From Gemmatimonadota bacterium (lineage in GTDB: Bacteria; Gemmatimonadota; Gemmatimonadetes; Longimicrobiales; Gaopeijiaceae), in the NCBI GenBank assembly GCA_039589315.1, contig JBDHHQ010000025.1:1-61003 (forward strand): DNA of 61,003 bases, written 5' to 3'. This document shows, piece by piece, positions 1-14,387 of the stretch. The notes beneath the pieces are model-generated. The model did not search any database. It saw only the letters and a program-made list of their open reading frames with translations, and had not been told where the DNA came from. Both the position numbers and the translations under genes were made by a program. How positions within the stretch are numbered: the stretch's first letter is position 1; each line of letters starts with the position of its first letter.

Positions 1-1908
1 ACGGACATGGTAGGCTTCACGGCCTTGATGCAGGAGGACGAGGCGCGCGCACGCGCAGCGGTCGACCGACACCGCGCCGTAGTACGACGGGCCGTGACCG
101 ACTACCGGGGCGATCTGGTCCAGTTCTACGGCGACGGCACCTTGAGCGTCTTCCCCAGCGCCGTCGACGCCGTGGATTGCGCGCTGAAGATCCAGCAGGA
201 GGTGGCGAAGTCACCATCGGTGCCCCTGCGCATCGGCCTCCACACCGGCGACGTCGTGCACGACGAGGGCTCGGTGTTCGGAGATGGCGTCAACGTCGCC
301 GCCCGCATTCAGGGCCTCGGAGTGCCGGGGTCGGTGCTCCTGTCCGCCAAGCTGCGTGACGAGATCAAGAACCAGCCTCGGTTCCAGACACGGGTCACGG
401 GCTCCTTCGCCCTGCGCAACGTCCAGCAGCCCATGGACGTCTTCGCGCTGACCAACGAAGGGATGGCGGTTCCCCAGGCGTCCGAGCTCCCCCGGCAGGC
501 GAACAGCCAGAGCAGCGTAGCCGTGCTGCCGTTCGTGAACATGAGCGCGGATCCGGAAAACGAGTTCTTCGCCGACGGGGTCACGGAAGAAGTCATCAAC
601 GTCCTGACCCGGATCGAGGGCCTCAAGGTCACGGCTCGCACATCCTCCTTCGTATTCAAAGGACGGAACGAGGACATTCGGGAGATCGGTGAGCAGCTCG
701 GCGTGAGTCACGTCCTGGAGGGCAGCGTGCGCAGGGCCGGCGACCGCGTACGCGTCACGGCCCAGCTGATCACGACGCGGGACGGGTATCATCTCTTCTC
801 CGATGTCTACGACCGGCGGATCGAGGACATCTTCGCCACGCAGGACGACATCGCCGCGGCAATCGCCCAGGCGCTCCGGGAGCACCTGGGATCCGGGCCT
901 CGACCCGAGAGGCGGTCCGGTGCCGAAACCCGGAACGTCAGCGCCCACGAGCGGTACCTCCGGGGGCTCCACTTCTGGAACAAGTACACCCCTCCAGCGG
1001 TCCGGACGGCCATCGGCCACTTCCAGGCGGCCGCGGGCATGGACGAGAACTGGGCACCGCCCCGCTTCATGGAGGCGAGCGCGCTGGTCTTCCTCTGCTC
1101 CCTCGGCTACGAAGCGCCCCGGCGCGGATTCCCCCAGGCGGAGGCAGCGGCCGGAGAAGCCATCCGCCTGGGCCCGGCCCTGGGCGAGTCCCACATGGCC
1201 GTGGCGCTGGTTCAGTTCTTCTACGAGTGGGACTTCGACGCGGCGGAAGAGTCCTTCGAGCGGGCCCTCAGCCTCACCCCCGGCTCGGCCAACGTGCACC
1301 AGACACTGGCCATGCTCCGGGAAGCACAGGGTCGGTACGACGAGGCCATTCAACTGATGCGTCGAGCCGTGGAGCTGGACCCCCTGTCCCTCATCATGCG
1401 GCTCAACCTCGGTCGGGCCTACCTGAGGGCTGGCCGTTTGGACGAGGCGGCGGCCCAAGGGGAGCATGTCCTCCAGCTGGATCCGGACTTCCGTGCGGCC
1501 CGGGGCGGGCTGGGCTGGGTTCACCTCGCGCGTGGGGACGCGGCCGCGGCCATCGAGTGCTTCGAGGCGCTGCCGCGGCAGACGGGAGACCCCTTCAACG
1601 CCGCGGCGCCCCGCGCCCTGGCGTACGCGGCGGCCGGTCGAACGAACGAGGCGCGGACGATGCTCGAGCTCATCGAGCGCCGTGCGGAGGAGCATCCAGA
1701 GCTCCACCTCCACATGGACTTCGCGCTGGCGCACAACGCCCTGGGTGAGGCCGAGAAGGCAATCGACGCCCTCGAGGGCGCAGTGGAAGCGCGCCAGGGC
1801 ACGATCGCCATGGTGCCCAGCGACCCCACGTGGGCCAACCTCAGGAGCCACCCCCGCTTCCAGGCGCTCATGGAGCGAGCCGGCTTGTCCAGGTGGGTGG
1901 GCCCGTGA
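1..1908 (+). CDS. Class III nucleotide cyclase + TolB-like + TPR protein (5' end truncated by window)
   Basis: Frame is open from base 1 (TDMVGFT). Cyclase motifs QFYGDG, LRIGLHTGDV, FGDGVNVAARIQ; then SVAVLPFVNMS...FADGVTEE and LEGSVRR (TolB-like); C-terminal TPRs. Confidence 0.9.
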   Translation, partial: TDMVGFTALMQEDEARARAAVDRHRAVVRRAVTDYRGDLVQFYGDGTLSVFPSAVDAVDCALKIQQEVAKSPSVPLRIGLHTGDVVHDEGSVFGDGVNVAARIQGLGVPGSVLLSAKLRDEIKNQPRFQTRVTGSFALRNVQQPMDVFALTNEGMAVPQASELPRQANSQSSVAVLPFVNMSADPENEFFADGVTEEVINVLTRIEGLKVTARTSSFVFKGRNEDIREIGEQLGVSHVLEGSVRRAGDRVRVTAQLITTRDGYHLFSDVYDRRIEDIFATQDDIAAAIAQALREHLGSGPRPERRSGAETRNVSAHERYLRGLHFWNKYTPPAVRTAIGHFQAAAGMDENWAPPRFMEASALVFLCSLGYEAPRRGFPQAEAAAGEAIRLGPALGESHMAVALVQFFYEWDFDAAEESFERALSLTPGSANVHQTLAMLREAQGRYDEAIQLMRRAVELDPLSLIMRLNLGRAYLRAGRLDEAAAQGEHVLQLDPDFRAARGGLGWVHLARGDAAAAIECFEALPRQTGDPFNAAAPRALAYAAAGRTNEARTMLELIERRAEEHPELHLHMDFALAHNALGEAEKAIDALEGAVEARQGTIAMVPSDPTWANLRSHPRFQALMERAGLSRWVGP

Positions 1909-2798
1909 CCATGTGCGTGGGCGCGTGCTCCGGTCCCGGACACTCCGTCGGCGCCATCGGATTCCTGGCTCTCGCGCTTCTCACCGCGGCACCGCTCGGG
2001 GCCCAAGGGCTCGCGTCCTACGCGCTCGACGGTGACGCGGCCGAGCAGCACGAGCTGCCGGGACGCCTACGCGAGGTGTCGGGGTTGGCCGTCACTGCGG
2101 ACGGCAGGCTGTTCGCCCACGACGACGAGCGCGCCCGCGTCTACCAGATCGAGCCCCGCAGCGGAGAGGTCGTCAAGCGGTTCGACGTCGGCGAGGGGGG
2201 CGTCCGCGGAGATTTCGAGGGCATTGCGATCGCGGGCGACCGGTTCTACCTGGTCGAGAGCGACGGGACGCTGTACGAGTTCCAGGAAGGCGAGGAGAAG
2301 GAGGACGTTCCTTACCGGGAAGTGAAGACCGCCCTCGGGCGCCGATGCGAAGTCGAGGGACTCGCCCACGATCCGGACTCGGGTTCGCTGCTCCTGGTGT
2401 GCAAGAGCACGCGGGGTCGCGATCTTCGAGACCGCCTCGTCGTCTTCGCGGCACCACTCGACACGCTGCAGCCCGACGCCGAGCCACGGTACCAGATTCC
2501 GTTTGCATCGCTGCGGGACGTGGGCGCCCGGGGACGGCTCCATCCGTCTGGAATCGAAGTGCACCCGGTCACCCGGCAGATATTCGTCGTGGCTGCTCGT
2601 GAGGAAGGGATCGTGGAGATCGACCGGGCGGGACGATTCGTGGGTGCGGCCGAGCTGCCGGGCAAGCAGCACGTGCAGCCCGAGGGGATCGCCTTCGTGG
2701 CCGATGCCCTGGCGCTGGCCGACGAGGGAACGGGTCGCAAGGCCACCCTCACGCTGTACCCCCGGCGGCGGGCCCGGCCCGGGGGGGACATGCCGTGA
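1905..2798 (+). CDS. Secreted SdiA-regulated/YjiK-like beta-propeller protein
   Basis: GTG overlaps upstream TGA. Signal peptide (LALALLTAAPLGA); repeated blade motifs EVSGLA, DFEGIA, EVEGLA, HPSGIE, QPEGIA. Confidence 0.75.
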   Translation: MTMCVGACSGPGHSVGAIGFLALALLTAAPLGAQGLASYALDGDAAEQHELPGRLREVSGLAVTADGRLFAHDDERARVYQIEPRSGEVVKRFDVGEGGVRGDFEGIAIAGDRFYLVESDGTLYEFQEGEEKEDVPYREVKTALGRRCEVEGLAHDPDSGSLLLVCKSTRGRDLRDRLVVFAAPLDTLQPDAEPRYQIPFASLRDVGARGRLHPSGIEVHPVTRQIFVVAAREEGIVEIDRAGRFVGAAELPGKQHVQPEGIAFVADALALADEGTGRKATLTLYPRRRARPGGDMP

Positions 2799-5425
2799 CA
2801 CCGACCCGACTGAGGCGCGCCGTGCCGCAGACCAGGAGGTGCCCGGTAGCGCCCACCTGCCTCCTGGCCACTGTCGTCGTCGCCTCCGGCGTGGTGACGC
2901 CTGCCGACGCTCGCGGCCAGGACCCCGGGCCCGTCGCGGCGCCCGGGCAGCTGATCGAGACGACGCCCCAGGGCCGTTATGATGCCAGCGGGCTCCAACG
3001 TTTCTTTCTGGGCGACGGCCACCGGGACCTCTGGGCGACGCCCGTGCAGGCCCGTGTCCTGGACCTGGACGAATTCGCCGGAGGGCTGGCCGTCTTGCGT
3101 GAAGGGGGAGGGCTACAGACCCGGTCGCTGCGGTTCCAGGGGGAAGACGGTCAGGTCTGGAACTTCCGCTCCGTGGACAAGGACGCGTCGCGGTCCCTCG
3201 ACCCCGAGCTCCGAAACACCATCGCCGCCAGCGTGATGCAGGATCGCATCTCGGCCGTCCTCCCGCTCGGCGCCATGGTGGTCGCGCCCCTGCTGGAAGC
3301 GGCGGACGTCCTCCACCCGGATCCCACGTTGGTGGTCATGCCCGATGATGCACGGCTGGGGGAGTTTCGAGAGGACTTCGCCGGTCTTCTGGGCTGGATC
3401 GAGGTGCGACCCGACGAGGGGCCGGACGGTTCTCCGGGATTCGCCGGGTCGAGCCGCGTCATCGGCTCCGACCGGCTCTTCGAGCGAATCGAAGACGATG
3501 CGTCGGAACGGGTGGATGCAGAGAGCTACCTCCGGGCACGTCTTATGGACGTGTTCGTGGGGGATTGGGATCGGCACCCCGACCAGTGGCGTTGGGCCGG
3601 CTTCGGCGACGCCCGTGAGATGGTCTTCGAGCCCGTCCCCAGAGACCGGGACTGGGCCCTCAGTCGGCTGGACGGGGTCGTGGGCAGCGTCAGCTGGGCG
3701 TTCTGGCCTCACTACGTGGGATTCCAGCACGAGTACCCGAACGCGTTCCGGGCCACGTGGAGCGCTCGGGTCCTGGACCGGCGTCTCCTGAGCGCCCTGC
3801 CGCGCGACCGTTGGCTGGAGGTGGCCGCCGACCTGGAGTCCCGCATTACGGACGATGTCATCGACCGCGCCATCGACCGCCTGCCCCCCGGATACGAGGA
3901 GCAGATCGGCGCCGAGCTCGGCGCGGCGCTGAGACACCGGCGCGACGACCTGATCCGCTTCGCGGACGAGTGGTACGCCCTGCTGGCTCGCTGGGTCGAC
4001 GTCCACGCCACCGACGCGAACGAGCGGGCCGAGCTCGCGTGGCAGGACGGGGGCGGTGTGGAGGTCCGCATCTTCCCGGATCCCGTGGGCCAGGGCCAGC
4101 CCTACTTCCAGCGCACGCTTTACGCGGAGGAAACGAGCGAGCTCCGGCTCTACATGCACGGCGGCGACGACGTGGTGATCGTCGAGGGACCGGGGCCGGG
4201 GTCCGTGAGGCTCCGGGTCATCGGTGGAGGAGGAGACGACGCCCTGGAGAATGCAACTGTGGGCGGAGGCGGCCAGGTTCACTTCTACGACCATCGGGGC
4301 GACAACGCGTTCGATCCGGGACCGGGGGCTCGATGGGACACCTCCGTGTTCGAGGAGCCCTTCGACCCCAGCGAGACCACCCATCAGGCGCCGTTCCGCG
4401 ATTGGGGTGCGCGCTGGCTCCCGCTGCCGACCATCACCTACGACGGCGACGTCGGGCTCTTCGTGGGCATGGGTGGTCTCCGCACCGGCTACGGGTTCCG
4501 GGCGTACCCCTACCACACCCGCCTGAGCGTGGCCGGCGGCCTGGGTACGGGGCCGGGCCGTTTCCGGGCGGAGGCGTCGTACGACTTCCCCGTCGTGGGC
4601 CGCTCCGTACGAGGCATCGCACACGTCTTCGCGTCGGGAGCCGAGGGTCGGCGCTTCTACGGCTTCGGAAACGAGACGTCGGCCGAGGGTGACGCGGCAT
4701 TCTTCAAGGCCCAGAACCGAGAAGTCCTGGTCGAGCTTCCCCTCGGCTTGAGCTGGGGCGAAGGCCGCTACGCCGGCCTCGGTCCCCTCTACAAGCACTT
4801 CGAGCCTCTCGACACCGATTCCACCTTCGTCTCCCAGGAGAGACCCTACGGCTACCAGAGCTTCAACGAAGCCGGCCTCGTGGCCATGTTCGGGTGGGAC
4901 TCCCGGGACAAGCGGATCGGGCCGAGTCGGGGGTGGCTCGTGCAAGCGGAGGCCCGCTATTTCCCGGACGTTCTGGACGTCCGGGCGCCCTTCGGCGGCA
5001 TCCGTGGATGGGCGGCCGGATTCTTCACCGTCCCCGGTCGTCTCGGCCCCACCCTCGCGGCAAGGGCCGGCGGTGAACGGGTTTGGGGCGACGTGCCGTA
5101 TCAGGAGGCTGCCTATCTCGGTGGGCCCACGAGTCTTCGGGGGTACCGTAACCGACGGTTCGCCGGAGAGGGCTCGCTCTTCCTCAACTCCGAGCTACGG
5201 TTTCGCCTCGCGAGGCTGAAGATCCTGCTACCCGAGGACGTGGGGATCTTCGGGCTGGCCGACGTGGGGCGGGTCTTCGTCGAGAACGAGGATTCCGACA
5301 CGTGGCACTCGGCGTGGGGCGGTGGCGCCTGGATCTCTTTGATGGACGTGGTGTCGTTGAACCTGTCGGTGGCTGTGAGCCCGGAATACACGGCCTTCTA
5401 CTTCCAGTCCGGCTTCTCCTTCTAG
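2795..5425 (+). CDS. Omp85/BamA-TamA-like outer membrane barrel with N-terminal atypical kinase-like domain
   Basis: Signal peptide; C-terminal LGGPTSLRGY, SELRF, DVGRV and terminal GFSF (barrel signature); N-terminal GGGLQT, GDWDRHPDQW, PRDRD motifs. Confidence 0.8.
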   Translation: MTPTRLRRAVPQTRRCPVAPTCLLATVVVASGVVTPADARGQDPGPVAAPGQLIETTPQGRYDASGLQRFFLGDGHRDLWATPVQARVLDLDEFAGGLAVLREGGGLQTRSLRFQGEDGQVWNFRSVDKDASRSLDPELRNTIAASVMQDRISAVLPLGAMVVAPLLEAADVLHPDPTLVVMPDDARLGEFREDFAGLLGWIEVRPDEGPDGSPGFAGSSRVIGSDRLFERIEDDASERVDAESYLRARLMDVFVGDWDRHPDQWRWAGFGDAREMVFEPVPRDRDWALSRLDGVVGSVSWAFWPHYVGFQHEYPNAFRATWSARVLDRRLLSALPRDRWLEVAADLESRITDDVIDRAIDRLPPGYEEQIGAELGAALRHRRDDLIRFADEWYALLARWVDVHATDANERAELAWQDGGGVEVRIFPDPVGQGQPYFQRTLYAEETSELRLYMHGGDDVVIVEGPGPGSVRLRVIGGGGDDALENATVGGGGQVHFYDHRGDNAFDPGPGARWDTSVFEEPFDPSETTHQAPFRDWGARWLPLPTITYDGDVGLFVGMGGLRTGYGFRAYPYHTRLSVAGGLGTGPGRFRAEASYDFPVVGRSVRGIAHVFASGAEGRRFYGFGNETSAEGDAAFFKAQNREVLVELPLGLSWGEGRYAGLGPLYKHFEPLDTDSTFVSQERPYGYQSFNEAGLVAMFGWDSRDKRIGPSRGWLVQAEARYFPDVLDVRAPFGGIRGWAAGFFTVPGRLGPTLAARAGGERVWGDVPYQEAAYLGGPTSLRGYRNRRFAGEGSLFLNSELRFRLARLKILLPEDVGIFGLADVGRVFVENEDSDTWHSAWGGGAWISLMDVVSLNLSVAVSPEYTAFYFQSGFSF

Positions 5426-5448
5426 ACCCAGGCAGGCGCATCCGAACG

Positions 5449-5964
5449 ATGAAGACGCTCTACCTGCTTCGCCACGCCAAGTCCAGCTGGGATCATCCTG
5501 GGCTCTCGGACTTCGAGCGGCCCCTTGCCCCCCGGGGCGAGCGAGCGGCCCCGCGGTTGGCCACGTTCATGAAGGAGGAGGATCTGATCCCGGCCGTCGT
5601 CCTGTGCTCCACCGCCCGCCGAGCCAGGGAGACATGGGCCCTGATGGAGAACGAGCTTGGAGGTGCGGCGCAGGTGACGTTCCTGGATTCCCTCTACGGG
5701 GCCGGCCCCGGCCGCATGCTCGAGGCCGCCCGGATCCACGCCGAAGACCGTTCGCCCGTCATGCTGGTGGGACACAACCCAGGTATGGAGGATCTGGCTT
5801 ACGCCCTGGCCGCATCGGGTCCTGAGGCCGAGCTGCAGACGCTCGGACGCAAGTACCCCACGGCGGGCCTGGCCGTAATCGACCTCGACGTGACGTCGTG
5901 GTCGGACGTCGTGCCTGGCATGGGTGTCCTTCGCAGGTTCGTCCGCCCCAGGGACCTGCCGTAG
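5449..5964 (+). CDS. sixA: Phosphohistidine phosphatase SixA (histidine phosphatase family)
   Basis: MKTLYLLRHAKSSW, RPL..RG, STARRARET, LVGHNP motifs. Confidence 0.9.
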   Translation: MKTLYLLRHAKSSWDHPGLSDFERPLAPRGERAAPRLATFMKEEDLIPAVVLCSTARRARETWALMENELGGAAQVTFLDSLYGAGPGRMLEAARIHAEDRSPVMLVGHNPGMEDLAYALAASGPEAELQTLGRKYPTAGLAVIDLDVTSWSDVVPGMGVLRRFVRPRDLP

Positions 5965-6029
5965 GCGACGCCTGTCGTCTGCAGCGATCCCGTCACCGAG
6001 GACACGAGTCACCCGGGCCGTCGCGTCCC

Positions 6030-8138
6030 ATGCTCCAACCAAACGACCGCGATTACACGTACGCAGACCGGGAGCTGAGCTGGATCTCCTTCAACGGCCG
6101 GGTCCTGCAGGAGGCGGACGACCCCACCGTGCCGCTCTTCGAGCGTCTCGCGTTCCTGGCCATCTTCTCGTCCAACCTCGACGAGTTCTTCCGGGTCCGG
6201 GTGGCGTCGCTTCGGAGCCTGCTGCGCCTCAAGAAGAAGAAGCTGGGCAAGCTTCGCATGAACCCGCGTCGCCTGCTCCGGGAGATCCACAGCAAGGTCT
6301 CTGCGCAGCAGGAGCGCTTCGGCGACATCTTCCGTGACCGCATCCTCCCGGAGCTGGCGGGTCATGGGATACATCTGGTCGACGAACGCTCGGTGTCGGA
6401 GGAGCACGCGGATTTCGTCCGGGAGTACTTCCGGCAACGAGTGCGGCCGCTACTCGACCCCGTACGCCTCGACCCCGAGTCGCCGTCCTTCCTGGAGGAC
6501 CGGCAGGTCTATCTGAGCGTCGAGCTCTGGGCGGTAGACGAGCATGGACTGGCTGGTCGGCCGGCCTACGCCCTCGTGAAGGTCCCTGACGAGCTCCCTC
6601 GTTTCGTCAGCCTTCCGGAGTCGGGAGACCGCAGGGAGGTGATGTTCCTGGACGACGTCATCCGGTTCTGCCTCCCGGAGCTCTTCCCCGACGCCGACGT
6701 GGGCGGAGCCTACGCGGTGAAGCTCTCGCGCGACGCCGAGCTCTACATCGAGGACGAGTTCTCCGGGAATGTGGTCGACGCCATCCGGAAGAGCTTGAGC
6801 AAGCGCGAGACGGGTGTGCCCGCCCGGTTTCTGTACGATCTGCAGAGCCCCTACGCCATGGTGGCCCTCCTGGGCCGCTGTCTGAGGCTGGAGGACGAGG
6901 ATCTGATCCTGGGTGGGCGGTACCACAACCTCCACGACTTCCATGGATTCCCCCGATTCGGGCTGACGGAGCTGGCCCATGAGCCCCTGGAGCTCCTCTC
7001 CCACCCCACCCTGTCGGCGCGCCGCCCCGTCCACCAGATCGTCTCCGAGAGGGACCGCATCGTCCACTTCCCATACCAGGCCTTCGATCCGGTGGTACGC
7101 TTCCTCGAAGAAGCCGCGGCCGACGTCGCGGTGGAGGAGGTGTGGGCGACGCTCTACCGGGTTTCCGAGGACTCGGCGGTCGTCCGGGCCCTGCTCGCCG
7201 CCGCCGAAGCGGGCAAGACAGTCCGCGTTTTCGTGGAGGTGAAGGCGCGCTTCGACGAGGCGTCGAACCTTCGCTGGGCCCAGCGCATGGAGAAGGCCGG
7301 CATCGTCACGCTGTACAGCTTCCGCGACCTCAAAGTGCACGCCAAGCTCGCGCTCGTGGCGCGAAGGGAGGGCCGTGACCTGAGGTATCACGCCTACCTG
7401 GGAACGGGAAACTTCAACGAGAAGACCGCTCGCATCTACGCCGATCACGGTCTGCTCACGGCCGACCCCCGCATAACCGAGGACGTTCGGCGCGTCTTCG
7501 GCATTCTCGCCGGCGAGGATGCGGAGCCTGCCTTCGAACACCTCCTGGTGGCGCCCTTCACCATGCGGGAGCGATTCTACGAGATGATCGAGCGGGAGGC
7601 CACGCACGCCAGGGAGGGGCGACCTGCGGGGATGGTGCTCAAGATGAACGGCCTGGAGGACGAGGGTATCATCCGTCGGCTCTACGACGCCAGTAATGCC
7701 GGTGTCCCCATCCGACTGATCGTGCGCGGAATCTGTCGCCTGGTCCCGCAGGTCCCCGGACAGAGCGAGAACATCACGGCCACCAGCATCGTGGACCGGC
7801 ACCTCGAGCACGCGAGGGTCTTTGTCTTCCGTAACGGAGGCGAGAATGCATACTATCTGGCATCGGCCGACTGGATGACACGCAACCTGAGTCACAGGGT
7901 GGAGGTCGCCTTTCCAGTGCTGGATCCGGAGATCCGCCAGGAGTTGCGCCGCATCCTGGACCTACAGATAGCCGACAACGTCAAGGCGAGGCGCATCGAT
8001 CCCGAGATGTCGAACGTGAGAGTGGACCCGGGCCAAGCAACCGGCGTGCGGGCTCAAGCCGCGACGCGGGAACTCCTGGCTGGCGTCCCCGCTTCCGACC
8101 GGAGGACCCAGGTCACGCGATTCGAGGAGACGGCATGA
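6030..8138 (+). CDS. ppk1: Polyphosphate kinase 1
   Basis: RELSWISFNGRVLQEA, SNLDEFFRVRVA, HFPY, TLYR, VEVKARFDE, KVHAK, GTGNFN, LEHARVF, SADWMTRNL. Confidence 0.97.
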   Translation: MLQPNDRDYTYADRELSWISFNGRVLQEADDPTVPLFERLAFLAIFSSNLDEFFRVRVASLRSLLRLKKKKLGKLRMNPRRLLREIHSKVSAQQERFGDIFRDRILPELAGHGIHLVDERSVSEEHADFVREYFRQRVRPLLDPVRLDPESPSFLEDRQVYLSVELWAVDEHGLAGRPAYALVKVPDELPRFVSLPESGDRREVMFLDDVIRFCLPELFPDADVGGAYAVKLSRDAELYIEDEFSGNVVDAIRKSLSKRETGVPARFLYDLQSPYAMVALLGRCLRLEDEDLILGGRYHNLHDFHGFPRFGLTELAHEPLELLSHPTLSARRPVHQIVSERDRIVHFPYQAFDPVVRFLEEAAADVAVEEVWATLYRVSEDSAVVRALLAAAEAGKTVRVFVEVKARFDEASNLRWAQRMEKAGIVTLYSFRDLKVHAKLALVARREGRDLRYHAYLGTGNFNEKTARIYADHGLLTADPRITEDVRRVFGILAGEDAEPAFEHLLVAPFTMRERFYEMIEREATHAREGRPAGMVLKMNGLEDEGIIRRLYDASNAGVPIRLIVRGICRLVPQVPGQSENITATSIVDRHLEHARVFVFRNGGENAYYLASADWMTRNLSHRVEVAFPVLDPEIRQELRRILDLQIADNVKARRIDPEMSNVRVDPGQATGVRAQAATRELLAGVPASDRRTQVTRFEETA

Positions 8139-9034
8139 CCCACGGAACGGATCCGCACGACGCCCGCGTCACGTCGACCCCGGACGACGCTTCGGCCGAA
8201 ACGGGCCCGGATGGCGCCCAGGCCGAAGCTGGCCCTGGCGGCGCACGGGTCGGAGCGAATCCCCCCGCCGGCGCATCGAGCGGCCTGGACCCCAAGAAGG
8301 AGTCGGCGGCCCCCCCGCCTGCGGACTCGCCCTCGGCGAACCAGATGGAGACGTCCACCTCCGTCGCCATGGCTCCAACGCCACCTTCGCCCGCCACCGA
8401 AGGGGACGATGTTCTTGACACGAAAGGGAAGAAAGGCAAGGGCAAGAAGAAGAAGAAGAAGGGCACGAAGGACGGGCTCGGAACGAGCCGGGGCATCGAG
8501 ACGATGTTTCGCACCTCCTACCGCACCCACCTCAACCTGAGCAACCTGGCTGACACCAAGGCCAACATCATGATCTCTATCAACGGGATCATCATCTCCA
8601 TCATCATCGCCTCCATCGCCCCCGGCATCGAGAGCAACTGGTGGCTCGTCTTCCCCACCTCCGTGGTGCTCCTCTCGTGCACGACGAGCATGGTGTTCGC
8701 GATCCTGGCCGCCCGCCCCCGCGTCAGCAGCCGCTTCGTTTCGCTGGAGGACGTTCGCTCCAACCGGGCCAACATCCTCTTCTTCGGGAACTTCGTGAAC
8801 ATGGAGGAAGAGGACTTCCTGACGGGCATGAGGGAGATCATGGGCAACTCGGACCAGCTCTACACCAACATGATGCGCGACATCTACTCCCTGGGCGGAG
8901 TCCTCTCCCGGAAGTACGCCCTGGTGCGCGTTTCCTACAACATATTCATGGTGGGCCTGAGCGTTTCGGTGCTGCTCTTCGTGGCCGTGTTCGCGCTGGC
9001 GGCGTACACGCAGGGATTCTCCGTCACGGGATAA
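8135..9034 (+). CDS. Pycsar-effector-family (DUF5706-like) membrane protein with disordered, Lys-rich N-terminus
   Basis: RGIETMFRTSYRTHLNLSNLADTKANIMISIN, AARPRV, NILFFGNF, LGGVLSRKY..VRVSYNIFM; three hydrophobic segments; ATGA overlap with ppk1. Confidence 0.8.
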   Translation: MTHGTDPHDARVTSTPDDASAETGPDGAQAEAGPGGARVGANPPAGASSGLDPKKESAAPPPADSPSANQMETSTSVAMAPTPPSPATEGDDVLDTKGKKGKGKKKKKKGTKDGLGTSRGIETMFRTSYRTHLNLSNLADTKANIMISINGIIISIIIASIAPGIESNWWLVFPTSVVLLSCTTSMVFAILAARPRVSSRFVSLEDVRSNRANILFFGNFVNMEEEDFLTGMREIMGNSDQLYTNMMRDIYSLGGVLSRKYALVRVSYNIFMVGLSVSVLLFVAVFALAAYTQGFSVTG

Positions 9035-9155: not shown

Positions 9156-10055
9156 CTATCGGCGCTTCAGCTCCTCGAGCTCCTCGAGCGTACGTGGCCA
9201 GTCCTTCCCGAGGAGGCGGGAAAGGGCCCGGTCTGCCAGGAGCCTCCCTCCCGTCTGGCAGTGCGCACAGTAGTTCGTCTCGCGCTGAGCATACTTGATC
9301 CGCTGGATGGCCGACCCGCACACGGGGCAGGGTTCCCCGAATCTCCCGTGGGCCGCCATAGCGGGGTGGAACGCGGTGACCTTCTCCGGGAAGGCGTCCC
9401 CCACCTCCGAGCGCAGCCGGTCCACCCACTCGGCCAGCGACCGCCGCGTGGTCTCGTACAGGCGGGCCATTTCGTCGTCGTCGAGTTGGCGGGTGAGTCG
9501 CACAGGAGACAACCCGGCGAAGAGGAGGATCTCGTCCGAGTGGGCGTTGCCGATCCCGGAGAGTATGCGCGGATCGGTGAGGGCCCGCTTGAGAGTGCGG
9601 TTCTCCCGGAGGAGGGCCTCCTTGAACTCGTCGAGGGAAGCGTCCAGCGGCTCCAGGCCGCCTGGATCGAGCGCGGACAAGGCGGCCTCTCCCCGCACGA
9701 CGTGTAGCGATGCCCGTTTGTGGGAGCTGGCTTCGGTGAGGAGCAGGGTTCCACCCGGGAAATCGAACGCCGCGTGACCGATCTTTCCGGGAATCGCCGC
9801 TCCCCTGGGCTTCCAGCGAAAGCGACCCGAGATCATCAGGTGGATGACCACGAACAGGTCATCCTCCATCTGCCACACGATCCGCTTCCCCATCCGCCTC
9901 AGCCCCTGGACGCGTAGGCCTTCGATGGCCGATACGGGTGGGTCCCAGGTCCGCAGGAGAGAGGGAGAGCGCATGCGCACCTTCTCCAGCGGCTGGCCCG
10001 AGAGCCGCCGGTCCAGGGCGTCGAGGTAGATGGTGATCTCAGGGTATTCGGGCAC
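9156..10055 (-). CDS. Fpg/Nei family DNA glycosylase
   Basis: GTG start giving (M)PEYPE N-terminus; RMGK, HLMISG, H2TH GIGNAHSDEIL, zinc finger CPVC...CAHC. Confidence 0.93.
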   Translation of the reverse strand: MPEYPEITIYLDALDRRLSGQPLEKVRMRSPSLLRTWDPPVSAIEGLRVQGLRRMGKRIVWQMEDDLFVVIHLMISGRFRWKPRGAAIPGKIGHAAFDFPGGTLLLTEASSHKRASLHVVRGEAALSALDPGGLEPLDASLDEFKEALLRENRTLKRALTDPRILSGIGNAHSDEILLFAGLSPVRLTRQLDDDEMARLYETTRRSLAEWVDRLRSEVGDAFPEKVTAFHPAMAAHGRFGEPCPVCGSAIQRIKYAQRETNYCAHCQTGGRLLADRALSRLLGKDWPRTLEELEELKRR

Positions 10056-10205
10056 GGGGTTTCTTGCAGGTCCGGGATGGGTCGGACATCTTTCCACTTC
10101 AACGTAACCCTCGGCGGGGCCCCGTCGACCTCCGGCTCCCGTCGAGACCGGTAGAACCCGCCACGAGCTCCTGAGGCCGACGACCTCGAGCGCCGCCCGC
10201 ATACC

Positions 10206-10535: not shown

Positions 10536-10816
10536 CGGTGCGGAACCGTCCCCCAAGGCTCCGGCGTTGCGCTGACGCCACATTCCTTCGCCCGGTCCGC
10601 CCAATCTCGAGGGGATCCGAGCGGCCGGAGCCGATCGCAGGCTTCGGCCCGCCGCCCGCTTGAGCGGGCCGCGCTCCACGAGTCCGCGCTGTGCCTTGAT
10701 CCGTGCGGGTTCCCACCGATCCTGGTCCGAAAGCTGCAGCAAACCCGTCCGTGGGCCCACCCGACTCCGCCGGCGGGGTATCGGCACGGCGGTGACTTCG
10801 TTTTCTTTTGGTGGCC

Positions 10817-12370
10817 ATGCAGACGACTCACCACCGGCTTCCCCCCCCGGATCCTCCGGCACCTCGGCCGCGCGCGCGGGTCGCAACCGCATGCGTGGGC
10901 GCGGGTGCGAGGGGGCCGCGGGTATGGCGCATCCTCCTCCTGCCCGTGGCGCTCCTGGCGGGCGTGCAGGCGTACCCCCTTTCCGGCCAGTCCTCCTCGG
11001 CGCCGGCCCGACCCCTCGACGCCGGGCACTGGGCGTACGACTTCATGGAGGTCGTCCACGCCCTGGGCGCTCCCAGCGTCTGGGCCCCATGGATGGAGCC
11101 CGTGCTCGCGCCCGCGGTCGGATCCGCGCTTCAGGAGGCGGGCCAGGCTCGGCCCGGCCTCGCCGCACCCCTGGATCGCTGGGTCGACTTGTTCCAGAAC
11201 GAGACGGCAATCCCGGCCGGACAGTGGGCGCGGCTGGGCATGGGCGCAGGATTCCAGGGCGGGCAGGCCTCCCTCCTCCCGGAGCGGGGCGGGTTCATCG
11301 ACGGGCTGGTCGACGTTCCACTCTCCCACAACGTAGCGCTGTGGGCCGAGGGGGGCGTCTCGAGCGAAGGGTCCGAAGCCGAGCTCGCGTCTGGCGGGCT
11401 CTCGGCCCGGTTCGGCGCGGCCCAACTGGTGGCTGGACGCGTTCGCTCCCGCATCGGCCAGGGGAGCTCTCGCATCCTCCTGGCAGGCCGGAGCTCCATG
11501 GACGGCGTGCTGTTCGGCTCAGCCCGCCCCTTCCTGCTCCCCGGGTTCCTCGAGGTCCTGGGTCGTCTGACCGCCCACATCCTCGTGTCCCCGAACGTGA
11601 GCACCCCCACCACCGACCGCGCCTGGTTCAGCTCCATGGGAGTGAGCATCGAGCCGCACCCCTCCGTCCAGCTCGGTGCCTACCGGACCGTGCGATTCGC
11701 CGGCGAGGGGATATCGGATCCCTCGGTCAGCGAGATCATTCAGGTGTTCACGGGACAGGGCGGATCCGACGATTTCGACGACAGCCAGGGCGAGCTGGCC
11801 GCCCGCGTGCGCTTCCGCGCGTGGGGCCAGGCGGTGGCCCCCTACGTGTCGGTGGGCTTCGAGGACCTGCCCAGCTTGTGGGACGACCCCGGCATCGTCG
11901 CCGGCCTGCTGGTGCCCGTGGAGACGGGGTCGGGCATCCTGGCGACCCGCTACGAATACCAGGCATTCGGCAGGCAGGCCCAGTGGTGCTTGGGATGCGA
12001 GTACAAGTCCCACCGCTGGTACAACCAGCGCTCCTACGGAGAGTACACGTACGACGACGTTCTGCTGGCGTCGAGCCTCGGAGGGTACGGCACGCGCCAC
12101 CTGGTGGAAGCCTCCTGGTGGGGAGCCCTCCCGTTGCGGCTCAGCGGCCTGGTATTCTTCGAGAACCGTGAGGAAGGGAACCTGCTGTTCGAGCGGTGGC
12201 CGGGGCAGCGCCAGGGCGTGGGAGCGTCGGCGGCAGCTCGCCCGCGACCGGGCTGGGAGGTGGAAGCCGGGAGCGTCGTGTCCTGGTCGGAAGGCTCGAC
12301 CGAAGGCGAGCTGCGCCTCGTGGTCCGGATCTACGACGTGCTCAGCAACCCCGCCGGCTTCGGTCGCTGA
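10817..12370 (+). CDS. Capsule assembly Wzi-like outer membrane protein
   Basis: Signal-like segment, PLD..HWAY helical N-terminus, IGQG..ILL....MDG, PHPSVQLGAYRTVRFAGEG, amphipathic beta strands. Start uncertain. Confidence 0.55.
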   Translation: MQTTHHRLPPPDPPAPRPRARVATACVGAGARGPRVWRILLLPVALLAGVQAYPLSGQSSSAPARPLDAGHWAYDFMEVVHALGAPSVWAPWMEPVLAPAVGSALQEAGQARPGLAAPLDRWVDLFQNETAIPAGQWARLGMGAGFQGGQASLLPERGGFIDGLVDVPLSHNVALWAEGGVSSEGSEAELASGGLSARFGAAQLVAGRVRSRIGQGSSRILLAGRSSMDGVLFGSARPFLLPGFLEVLGRLTAHILVSPNVSTPTTDRAWFSSMGVSIEPHPSVQLGAYRTVRFAGEGISDPSVSEIIQVFTGQGGSDDFDDSQGELAARVRFRAWGQAVAPYVSVGFEDLPSLWDDPGIVAGLLVPVETGSGILATRYEYQAFGRQAQWCLGCEYKSHRWYNQRSYGEYTYDDVLLASSLGGYGTRHLVEASWWGALPLRLSGLVFFENREEGNLLFERWPGQRQGVGASAAARPRPGWEVEAGSVVSWSEGSTEGELRLVVRIYDVLSNPAGFGR

Positions 12371-12394: not shown

Positions 12395-14185
12395 TCACCG
12401 AAGCGGCAAGCTCTCCCGGTTGACCAGATCCCAGTAGCTCGTCCAGCCCGTGCCCTCCGCCGCCGCGGCGAAGTCCTCGATCCGCTGGAGGAGCTGCACG
12501 CTGGCGTAGCCGGACACTGCCTGCGGGTGGCTCGTCGAAAAACGGTCGAAGTAGCTGCGCACGATCATGGAGCTCTCGCTCCGCGGCAGCGCCCTGACGT
12601 TGTCGGCGAACCGGTCGAAGGTCCGGCTCCGCCACAGGTAGAACTCCACGTTGGACGTGTAGAGCGCGGACACCGTCAAACCCCTGTCCGCGGCCTCGGC
12701 GCCGACGGCCTCGAGGGCGTGAGATCCAGCCAGGTCGCCGACCACGGGAATCACTCGATTGTCGAGCTGCATGCGGCGAAGGAAGGCGTAGGTGTCCTCG
12801 TCGGCCAGGTAGTTCATGGGTCGCCCGTCGAGGTCGGTTTCCAGGAGGAGCCGACGATAGGTGGGGTAGTAGGCCCGCGGGCTGCGGAAGTGGCTGGTGA
12901 AACGCAGGTCCAGGCCCGCCTGCATGAACTGATGGTGGATGGTGCCGATGACCGCCAGGTCATCGACGCTGAGGGCTAGGCCCATGCTCGCAGCCGCATC
13001 GCGGACCCGCTCCCACGCCTCGGCTTCGTGCGACCGCTCGTACGGGTGCGCGTCGAGGTGGGCCGCGAGCTCGTCGACGGACCCTCCGACCCACTCCGAG
13101 GGATCGGGAGGCGGCGGCCGGCCGAACATGATCGACAGGTACTCGACCCGAGTGGGCGACAGCTCAAAGAGCGCCTTGAGCCAGACGTGCTGCAGGAGGT
13201 TGTCCCGCCGTATGTCGATGACGAACGCGAGCTCGGGGCGCACCACTGCCATGTACGAAAAGTTCTGATCGGGCCCCACGCCGATGTACGCGCCTCCCTT
13301 CGCCCCCTGGTCCTGGAGGGCTGCCGTGACGTGGAGGTACGAGCGCTCGTTGGAGATCAGGTTGTCCGTGTCGAAGTAGCCGCCCTCCTCCGAGAGCTCC
13401 CGGACCAGGCGGGCGAACGTCGAGTCCGGTATAGCCGTGGTGGAGGCCGCCGCGGTGGTGGACAGGGCCGAAGCCGCGGGCGTGCCCGGATCTTCCAACG
13501 TCCCGGCCTCGTCCACGCCCCCGTTGGGCGCGCATGCCCCGGCGAGCAGGGCCGCCCCGAGTGCGGTGACCGCGCGCACGCCGGTCCGGTCCGGCCGAGC
13601 CGTGCTCCGCGGGCCCTCCCTGACGGTCCGATACGGGAGCTCCTCATTCGCTCGTGCCGCGCGGAGGAGCAGGGAACCGCGGGTCATGTCGCCCATTCCC
13701 ACGAACGGGGCGGGAAAGCGAAGGGCGTCACCGAAGGCGTGGTGGAGGGGTTCCACGTACTTCTCGGTGGCAACGCTGCCGAGGAGGACCACCTGCCCGT
13801 CCGCGGGAAGCGTCGTCCGCACCGCCGCCGCCGTCCGATCGAGAGGCTCGCGGAACACGGGCTCGTTCTGGTGGATCGTCGCGCTGGCGAATTCTCTCAG
13901 CGCCTCGGGTCCCACACTCACCTCCGGAGTCATCAGGCCTCTGGTCGCCGTGATCACATACACGCCCGGCCGACCCCCGGGCGCCCGAGCGAAGCGTCCA
14001 CCGTAGGCGAGCTTGCCCCGGAAGTACAACCCGCTCAGGAAGGAGAAGAGCTCCCCGAGCGCGGCGCCCTCCGAAAGGAAGGACTGGGCATGGCGCCAGC
14101 GCGATCCTCCCGTCAGAAGGCCGGCGGCCCTACGTCCCGTGCAACTCGCAGGGGACAGGAGAAAGATCCGGACAGAGGGTCGCAT
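12395..14185 (-). CDS. Two-domain hypothetical protein: YaaA/DUF6884-like N-domain fused in frame to a lipoprotein-like uncharacterised domain
   Basis: Single open frame. N-part IFLLSPA...FLSGLYFRG...VITATRGL; internal lipobox LLAGAC; C-part GYFDTDNLISNE, GAYIGVGPDQNFSY, YTSNVEFYL. Confidence 0.6.
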   Translation of the reverse strand: MRPSVRIFLLSPASCTGRRAAGLLTGGSRWRHAQSFLSEGAALGELFSFLSGLYFRGKLAYGGRFARAPGGRPGVYVITATRGLMTPEVSVGPEALREFASATIHQNEPVFREPLDRTAAAVRTTLPADGQVVLLGSVATEKYVEPLHHAFGDALRFPAPFVGMGDMTRGSLLLRAARANEELPYRTVREGPRSTARPDRTGVRAVTALGAALLAGACAPNGGVDEAGTLEDPGTPAASALSTTAAASTTAIPDSTFARLVRELSEEGGYFDTDNLISNERSYLHVTAALQDQGAKGGAYIGVGPDQNFSYMAVVRPELAFVIDIRRDNLLQHVWLKALFELSPTRVEYLSIMFGRPPPPDPSEWVGGSVDELAAHLDAHPYERSHEAEAWERVRDAAASMGLALSVDDLAVIGTIHHQFMQAGLDLRFTSHFRSPRAYYPTYRRLLLETDLDGRPMNYLADEDTYAFLRRMQLDNRVIPVVGDLAGSHALEAVGAEAADRGLTVSALYTSNVEFYLWRSRTFDRFADNVRALPRSESSMIVRSYFDRFSTSHPQAVSGYASVQLLQRIEDFAAAAEGTGWTSYWDLVNRESLPLR

Positions 14186-14387
14186 GGGGCTCCACGGGCC
14201 AATCCATCTCTGCAGGTCACGGGGCAAAATGCCCCCTGGCGGCCGGAGCCGACAGGGGGCCTGCCGAGCTTCCCTTCCGGGCCGAATCGGTCGACATCAT
14301 AGATGGGGTTCCCCACGGAAGGGCGCGCCCCATCATGTGCTCTGGAGCGCCGCCGCGCGCGCTCGTCCAACCGAAGGCCGTACACGA

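Follow-up and report, generated by a model that had tools for sequence, protein, structure and literature searches.

A second polyphosphate kinase, a PycTM protein and a predicted kinase-like Omp85 protein belong to an apparently undescribed envelope gene set of Gemmatimonadota and Bacteroidota

What would a bacterium do with a second polyphosphate kinase that is kept in a tight run of genes together with an exported, predicted kinase-like protein carrying an Omp85 barrel? This question is raised by the first 9,034 nucleotides of a contig from a Gemmatimonadota bacterium of the order Longimicrobiales (GenBank assembly GCA_039589315.1, contig JBDHHQ010000025.1; positions 1 to 61,003, the whole stretch analyzed, are called the window below). 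Six genes, numbered here 1 to 6 in their order, encode a nucleotide cyclase with TPR repeats (cyclase-TPR), a YjiK-like propeller, a protein that combines a predicted kinase-like domain with the barrel (kinase-Omp85), a SixA-like phosphatase, polyphosphate kinase 1 (PPK1) and a membrane protein of the PycTM family, PF18967, which we take to be the former DUF5706. The initial annotation of this DNA proposed an uncharacterized envelope-spanning polyphosphate (polyP) system. The module is apparently a real, conserved and undescribed envelope gene set that, judged by its protein families, is outside every family of systems tested, and its role is likely housekeeping. The mechanism that we tentatively favor, while holding it to be somewhat short of probable, is that polyP made by PPK1 passes a cyclic-nucleotide-controlled PycTM pore to reach the exported kinase-like domain.

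Gene 3 was matched in 35 of 61 genomes of the order, and removal of four with weak barrel matches only left 31; linkage is reported throughout as counts, without P-values, and related genomes are not independent. All 31 genomes encode PPK1, and in 20 of them it lies no more than 8 kb from kinase-Omp85, so that the conserved linkage to ppk on which the initial annotation had staked its proposal is borne out; PPK1 is present in 12 of the 30 order genomes without kinase-Omp85. PycTM was found in 15 genomes of the order, all among the 31, and within 8 kb of kinase-Omp85 in seven. Strong matches to the propeller were detected in 14 genomes, and among the 13 examined, the propeller adjoins a module gene in 11 and is unlinked in two. 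Two operon types can be distinguished. Type A, that of the window, combines kinase-Omp85, PPK1 and PycTM, with the cyclase-TPR (4 loci), propeller and SixA as optional members; in the sister type B, kinase-Omp85 is accompanied by DUF4956, by either a propeller or a phosphoesterase and, usually, by a CYTH-PPK1 fusion. The 20 kinase-Omp85-PPK1 loci include five with PycTM, 10 with DUF4956, none with both and five with neither, some at contig ends. DUF4956 was not found in the host genome, which is 95% complete.

In a second phylum, 151 Bacteroidota genomes were sampled, of which 64 encode the kinase domain, 63 encode PycTM and 54 both; in 39 of these 54, kinase-Omp85 and PycTM are no more than 6 kb apart. 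The Bacteroidota neighborhood mentioned in the initial annotation (YjiK, metallophosphoesterase-Omp85, HD-DUF5706 and ppk) exists, for example, in locus L089, where counterparts of all six window genes, with PycTM in the form of HD-PycTM, are joined by PAP2, a phosphoesterase and a membrane cyclase. Fulvitalea axinellae pFA2 is a named carrier, and further named records include Rhodohalobacter mucosus and Pontibacter sp. G13; the six plasmid records with the kinase domain are all non-mobilizable Bacteroidota replicons. A survey of 301 genomes from the phylum to which a gammaproteobacterial record belongs did not find the domain. Of 20 hand-picked Bacteroidota loci, 12 have an adjacent propeller and three an adjacent PPK1; eight contain a PF00211 cyclase and three contain SixA. 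A looser count, with kinase domain and PPK1 within 15 kb in 18 of 59 genomes among the matches listed, was discounted because 16 of these pairs are separated by more than 10 kb; the three links examined have about ten unrelated genes in between and a PPK1 of another branch.

Gene 3, single-copy in the host genome, starts with a hydrophobic segment, as does gene 2, which has no other such segment; both are probably signal peptides. The barrel is matched by PF01103 at residues 641-837 and is accompanied by no POTRA family match in Pfam. The kinase-like domain has no Pfam match either, and the host genome has no match to PF08757 (CotH). Among 49 homologs from two phyla, R125, K129 and D284 are present in all 49, the Gly-loop residue G105 in 48 and D259 in 47, and each residue of the kinase motif set (G105, K129, D259, Q264, with Gln for Asn, and D284) is kept in 45-49 of the 49. 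Comparison with CtkA gave E 0.064 and aligned the catalytic loops of the two proteins; the best of five profiles, CotH (22 sequences), gave E 0.037 over the catalytic segment only, and the leads from Atlas were CotH, HipA and Fam20C at 0.78-0.79. These matches are individually weak, but they agree with one another; the ‘kinase’ label initially given to gene 3 draws on them and on the conserved motifs, with no match in Pfam. Two genes at L097:4502-6636, one for a CotH kinase and one weakly resembling phosphate porins, are located back-to-back with kinase-Omp85, SixA and HD-PycTM.

The PycTM of the module belongs to a conserved subfamily. Gene 6 is 40-64% identical to 11 module-type PycTMs as opposed to 20-21% identity to two effectors encoded beside PycC, and the median identity is 48% among 12 module PycTMs from two phyla versus 17% among 10 other members of the family. 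Immediately before the PycTM domain, 8-11 lysines are present in all 10 intact copies of the order, compared with 0-6 in 11 non-module PF18967 genes, many of which have short N-termini. Of 3642 longer PycTM homologs, the best 120 include 52 cyclase-PycTM fusions, making the cyclase the commonest fusion partner among them; the remaining fusions are mostly HD-PycTM, and three join PPK1 domains to PycTM, one of which (P0230) contains an entire PPK1 and PycTM in one frame. Profiles revealed no likeness between PycTM and DUF4956, and comparison with PDB sequences, including the solved VTC chains, produced nothing significant. In genome G004 (L050:6051-6819), the PycTM gene that follows the propeller and SixA is split over two frames.

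The PPK1 of the window, with all four PPK1 domains and intact His motifs at 437 and 594, is distinct from the other PPK1 of the host genome (C60/C168), which belongs to a separate branch. A tree of 109 sequences sets the window copy apart from the CYTH fusions as well and places it in a 36-member branch (support 0.99) whose other members are mostly from Bacteroidota, which suggests transfer of this PPK1 from Bacteroidota. Of the 12 PPK1s that adjoin PycTM or are fused to it, 11 belong to an 18-member group with an 11-member core (support 0.996); of 37 PPK1s hand-picked from module-less Bacteroidota, this group contains none.

In the mechanism that we favor, the extra PPK1 would make polyP at the cytoplasmic mouth of a PycTM pore predicted by homology with PucTM, a hexamer with a 15.2 Å channel (bioRxiv 10.64898/2026.08.12.744502). 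The lysine tail would gather polyanions, the polymer would cross the inner membrane via PycTM, and the Omp85-tethered kinase domain, in the periplasm or at the surface, would take polyP as its phosphoryl donor. The cyclase, together with an HD or MBL hydrolase in relatives, might open and close PycTM via a cyclic nucleotide, SixA might reset the phospho-His of PPK1, and the propeller, along with the phosphoesterase of relatives, might recycle phosphate. The periplasm is commonly regarded as free of ATP. An exported, intact kinase site needs a donor there and the gene travels with a polyP polymerase; hence our preference for polyP export. Likewise, PycTM is favored as the route because PycTM and DUF4956 appear interchangeable and because PucTM forms a channel.

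In support of this mechanism, the same three roles recur in a trio of accessory genes for CotH, a polyP polymerase and DUF4956 in Gram-positive pel loci (bioRxiv 10.1101/768473; PMC12345266). In both the trio and the module, an atypical kinase that is exported stays together with an inner-membrane protein and a polymerase of polyP, and the sister operon of the host order employs DUF4956 itself. The two differ in several respects: the module polymerase is PPK1, not a VTC-type enzyme, its membrane protein is PycTM, its kinase domain is outside PF08757 and fused to an Omp85 barrel, a cyclase and SixA are added, and no pel genes were seen. Of the components of the trio, the window thus has a polyP-making enzyme and neither a PF08757 kinase nor DUF4956.

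Several observations weigh against the proposed polyP export. In G001, from the same genus as the host, five module genes are kept and ppk1 is deleted between sixA and pycTM, with a 95-bp remnant at 87% identity (L037:4715-4840), and G024 encodes a module-type PPK1 of the 18-member group, with neither kinase-Omp85 nor PycTM found; this group has a support of only 0.52. The membership of ppk and sixA assumed in the initial annotation holds insofar as both recur across phyla, but the linkage is variable: among the matches listed for Bacteroidota, PPK1 is no more than 6 kb from the kinase domain in two of 59 genomes and from PycTM in five of 61, and SixA is scarce in the hand-picked loci. The whole-PPK1-PycTM fusion is a single sequence on a single contig, and PPK1 is truncated in the other two (P0146 and P0160); these two and the propeller-PycTM fusions P0137 and P0126 were set aside because deletions or assembly joins may have produced them. 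The cyclase-fused PycTMs lack the lysine tail (median of 3 Lys), no likeness was detected between PycTM and one DUF202 protein, and none of the kinase-fold matches is strong by itself. In S. intermedius, aggregation is reported to be reduced in membrane-protein and CotH mutants and not in the polymerase mutant (PMC12345266).

In the VTC complex of eukaryotes, polyP is threaded across a membrane by a polymerase coupled to a helical pore. A bolder version of the export mechanism, which we regard as doubtful, is that the module implements the VTC principle with other parts, PPK1 threading polyP through a cyclic-nucleotide-gated PycTM hexamer to power an outer-membrane-tethered, polyP-dependent kinase, and that Pycsar membrane effectors were recruited from this housekeeping pore. 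The proposed logic alone is shared with VTC; no homology was apparent, the polymerase is PPK1 instead of a tunnel polymerase, and PycTM did not match the DUF202 protein compared.

Traffic in the opposite direction would account for the many phosphatase neighbors and for the acidic residues of the propeller, which are invariant across 19 homologs. External phosphate esters or polyP would enter through the barrel and be degraded by the propeller and phosphoesterase, PycTM would admit phosphate or short polyP, and PPK1 would store it. Phosphate-handling neighbors, which fit export as well, include phosphoesterases, PAP2 and phosphate-porin-like genes (PF07396), the latter located beside HD-PycTM in two of nine Bacteroidota genomes with PycTM and without the kinase domain (L225:4519-5574; L227:1508-2527), and beside kinase-Omp85 in G119. 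However, these porin-like genes match only weakly (E ~1e-5), and PF07396 is present in 76 of the 151 genomes regardless. Furthermore, the window has no phosphoesterase domain, with gene 3 lacking the N-terminal PF00149 domain of its Bacteroidota homologs, a host-genome homolog of the phosphoesterase is on another contig (C28:66-998, minus strand, 33% identity), and import leaves the intact exported kinase site without a role. We consider import and storage unlikely.

The module might instead serve signaling, without any polymer crossing the membrane: the envelope proteins would sense or modify a phosphorylated cue, the cyclase and an HD or MBL hydrolase would set the cyclic nucleotide level, and PycTM would alter permeability, with PPK1 and SixA optional. 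Judging by its fusions to PycTM, the cyclase was underrated in the earlier reading. The cyclase part of these fusions is 40-52% identical to gene 1, although the fusions may represent one event because the named ones are all from Balneolaceae or unclassified Bacteroidetes; in the hand-picked Bacteroidota loci, PF00211 genes are more frequent than adjacent PPK1. Gene 1, which has no hydrophobic segment, keeps both metal-binding Asp residues and the Asn/Arg pair. Four residues ahead of the second Asp, where Lys or Glu is usual, it has Gln, and its product is therefore uncertain; this base-contact Gln is shared by two cyclase families that are only ~23% identical to each other. Directly upstream of gene 1, a divergently oriented gene for an MBL-fold hydrolase (C246:1544-2359, minus strand) is a candidate cyclic-nucleotide eraser, and homologs of it are found beside PycTM or a cyclase in four other loci (L039, L041, where it is ~5 kb off, L093 and L094). 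Against this scheme, the examined DUF4956 operons have no cyclase of the gene 1 subfamily, yet keep kinase-Omp85 and PPK1, and cyclase adjacency alone is cheap because the host genome encodes seven paralogs of this cyclase-TPR subfamily. We view such signaling, too, as improbable, on a par with import. The TolB-like region of gene 1 has 72 matches in the host genome, spread over several contigs. In G044, the opposite strand encodes a large cyclase between the PycTM and propeller genes (L040:10202-13666), and this cyclase contains a STAND-like ATPase motif. The idea that a GAF-annotated Bacteroidota neighbor might be a hidden cyclase gained no support from a 5-sequence profile; the host homolog of this neighbor (C3:79654-82113, minus strand, 40% identity) is unlinked to the module.

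It is quite unlikely that the genes are a loose cluster of phosphate-related functions with two independent pairs (cyclase-PycTM and kinase-Omp85-PPK1) and no single mechanism. Gene content and order are variable, SixA is also found next to housekeeping PPK1s, and kinase-Omp85 paralogs without partners occur at several loci; but kinase-Omp85 and PycTM co-occur in most Bacteroidota carriers of either (54 of 64 and 54 of 63), PycTM is fused to both cyclase and PPK1, and the full set is present in a second phylum.

A Pycsar-like anti-phage system, in which the cyclase and PycTM are joined by accessory genes, appears very unlikely: gene 6 is a three-helix PF18967 protein (PADLOC PycTM, E 7e-22) in the same gene run as a cyclase, the module is patchily distributed and its PPK1 was apparently transferred, but the best match of gene 1 to PycC profiles is only E 8e-4 over 68 residues, against E 1e-62 (L221) and 1e-79 (L217) for control PycC genes beside PycTM, and the module PycTM shows neither the rapid divergence nor the defense-island context of a defense gene. 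Among nine window proteins, the six and three flanking ones, no other PADLOC system gene was found, save a generic PLD match of PPK1 and a marginal DpdD match, and the G+C content of the six-gene stretch is 0.677 versus 0.691 in the remaining window. The initial prediction of a non-defense role is supported. As described in the Pycsar and Pucsar reports (PMC11224242; bioRxiv 10.64898/2026.08.12.744502), these systems share with the module a class III cyclase and a three-helix PF18967 membrane protein; the module differs in that its cyclase belongs to a TPR-bearing, non-PycC subfamily, its PycTM is conserved and lysine-tailed, and this PycTM travels with PPK1, the propeller and the kinase-Omp85 barrel.

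For the barrel, the nearest precedent is the ‘Metallo’ subfamily of Omp85, delineated by Heinz and Lithgow in 2014 along with ‘noNterm’, with a proteolytic role proposed (PMC4104836). The shared features are PF00149 plus barrel in the Bacteroidota relatives of gene 3 and a barrel without POTRA, whereas the window protein lacks PF00149; the words ‘kinase’ and ‘polyphosphate’ do not occur in the main text of this article. The module was not described in the literature searched, with most subscription papers and all supplements outside that search.

The coordinates of the features are collected in Table 1. As initially described, the six genes are co-oriented and tightly spaced, which is confirmed by the open reading frames, junctions and G+C content at third codon positions (0.83-0.88, coding-type in all six genes). 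The start-stop overlaps are GTGA at 1905 and 2795 and ATGA at 8135, and the two remaining gaps are 23 and 65 bp. The first two overlaps hinge on the choice of GTG starts: an alternative ATG is available at 1911, and gene 3 has a length of 867 aa in its database representative, compared with 876 aa with the GTG start. The window opens contig C25, and the true start of gene 1 is 27 bp upstream on contig C246, which supplies its first nine codons; the final 114 bases of C246 overlap the first 114 of the window and are identical to them. A scan of the locus for promoters and terminators gave counts at chance level. The family profile of gene 2 matches the YjiK structure 3qqz with E 1e-11. Downstream, Pfam identifies an Fpg/Nei glycosylase (9159-10088, minus strand), a Wzi-like protein (10808-12367, plus strand) and a DUF7790 protein (12398-14227, minus strand); the first two are likewise downstream of the module in G001.

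Table 1. Features of the module in the window, from the open reading frame listing and profile matches, and control loci
Feature	Position	Strand	Basis
Cytoplasmic class III nucleotide cyclase with TolB-like and TPR regions (gene 1)	1..1908	+	PF00211 E 5e-7 plus TPR
YjiK/SdiA-regulated beta-propeller, predicted signal peptide (gene 2)	1905..2798	+	PF06977 E 4e-7
Exported kinase-like domain + GGDD-motif linker + Omp85 barrel (gene 3)	2795..5425	+	PF01103 E 5e-7; NF047779 E 3e-28, below cut-off
Predicted kinase-like domain, CtkA/HipA/CotH-type atypical motifs	2930..3994	+	Conserved motifs, weak profile matches
SixA-like histidine phosphatase (gene 4)	5449..5964	+	PF00300 E 5e-9; TIGR00249 E 3e-12, below cut-off; RHAKS and GHNPG motifs
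Polyphosphate kinase 1, second (module-type) copy (gene 5)	6030..8138	+	TIGR03705 750 bits, cut-off 466
PycTM-family three-helix inner-membrane protein, conserved subfamily (gene 6)	8135..9034	+	PF18967 E 1e-29; three hydrophobic segments
Lysine-rich stretch directly preceding the conserved PycTM domain	8423..8470	+	11 Lys within 39 residues
Ordinary Pycsar pairs (PycC + PycTM), Bacteroidota controls	L221:1929-3254; L217:2803-4042

If the proposed export of polyP to the kinase-like domain is correct, it would reveal how bacterial polyP can leave the cytoplasm and what could serve as phosphoryl donor for atypical kinases exported to where ATP is presumably absent, a gap that applies to CotH too. 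The Omp85 superfamily would gain a previously unrecognized, predicted kinase-like passenger. PycTM, so far known as an effector of phage defense, would have a non-defense job, and the ‘Pycsar effector’ annotations in Bacteroidota (63 of the 151 genomes sampled) would mostly not represent defense.

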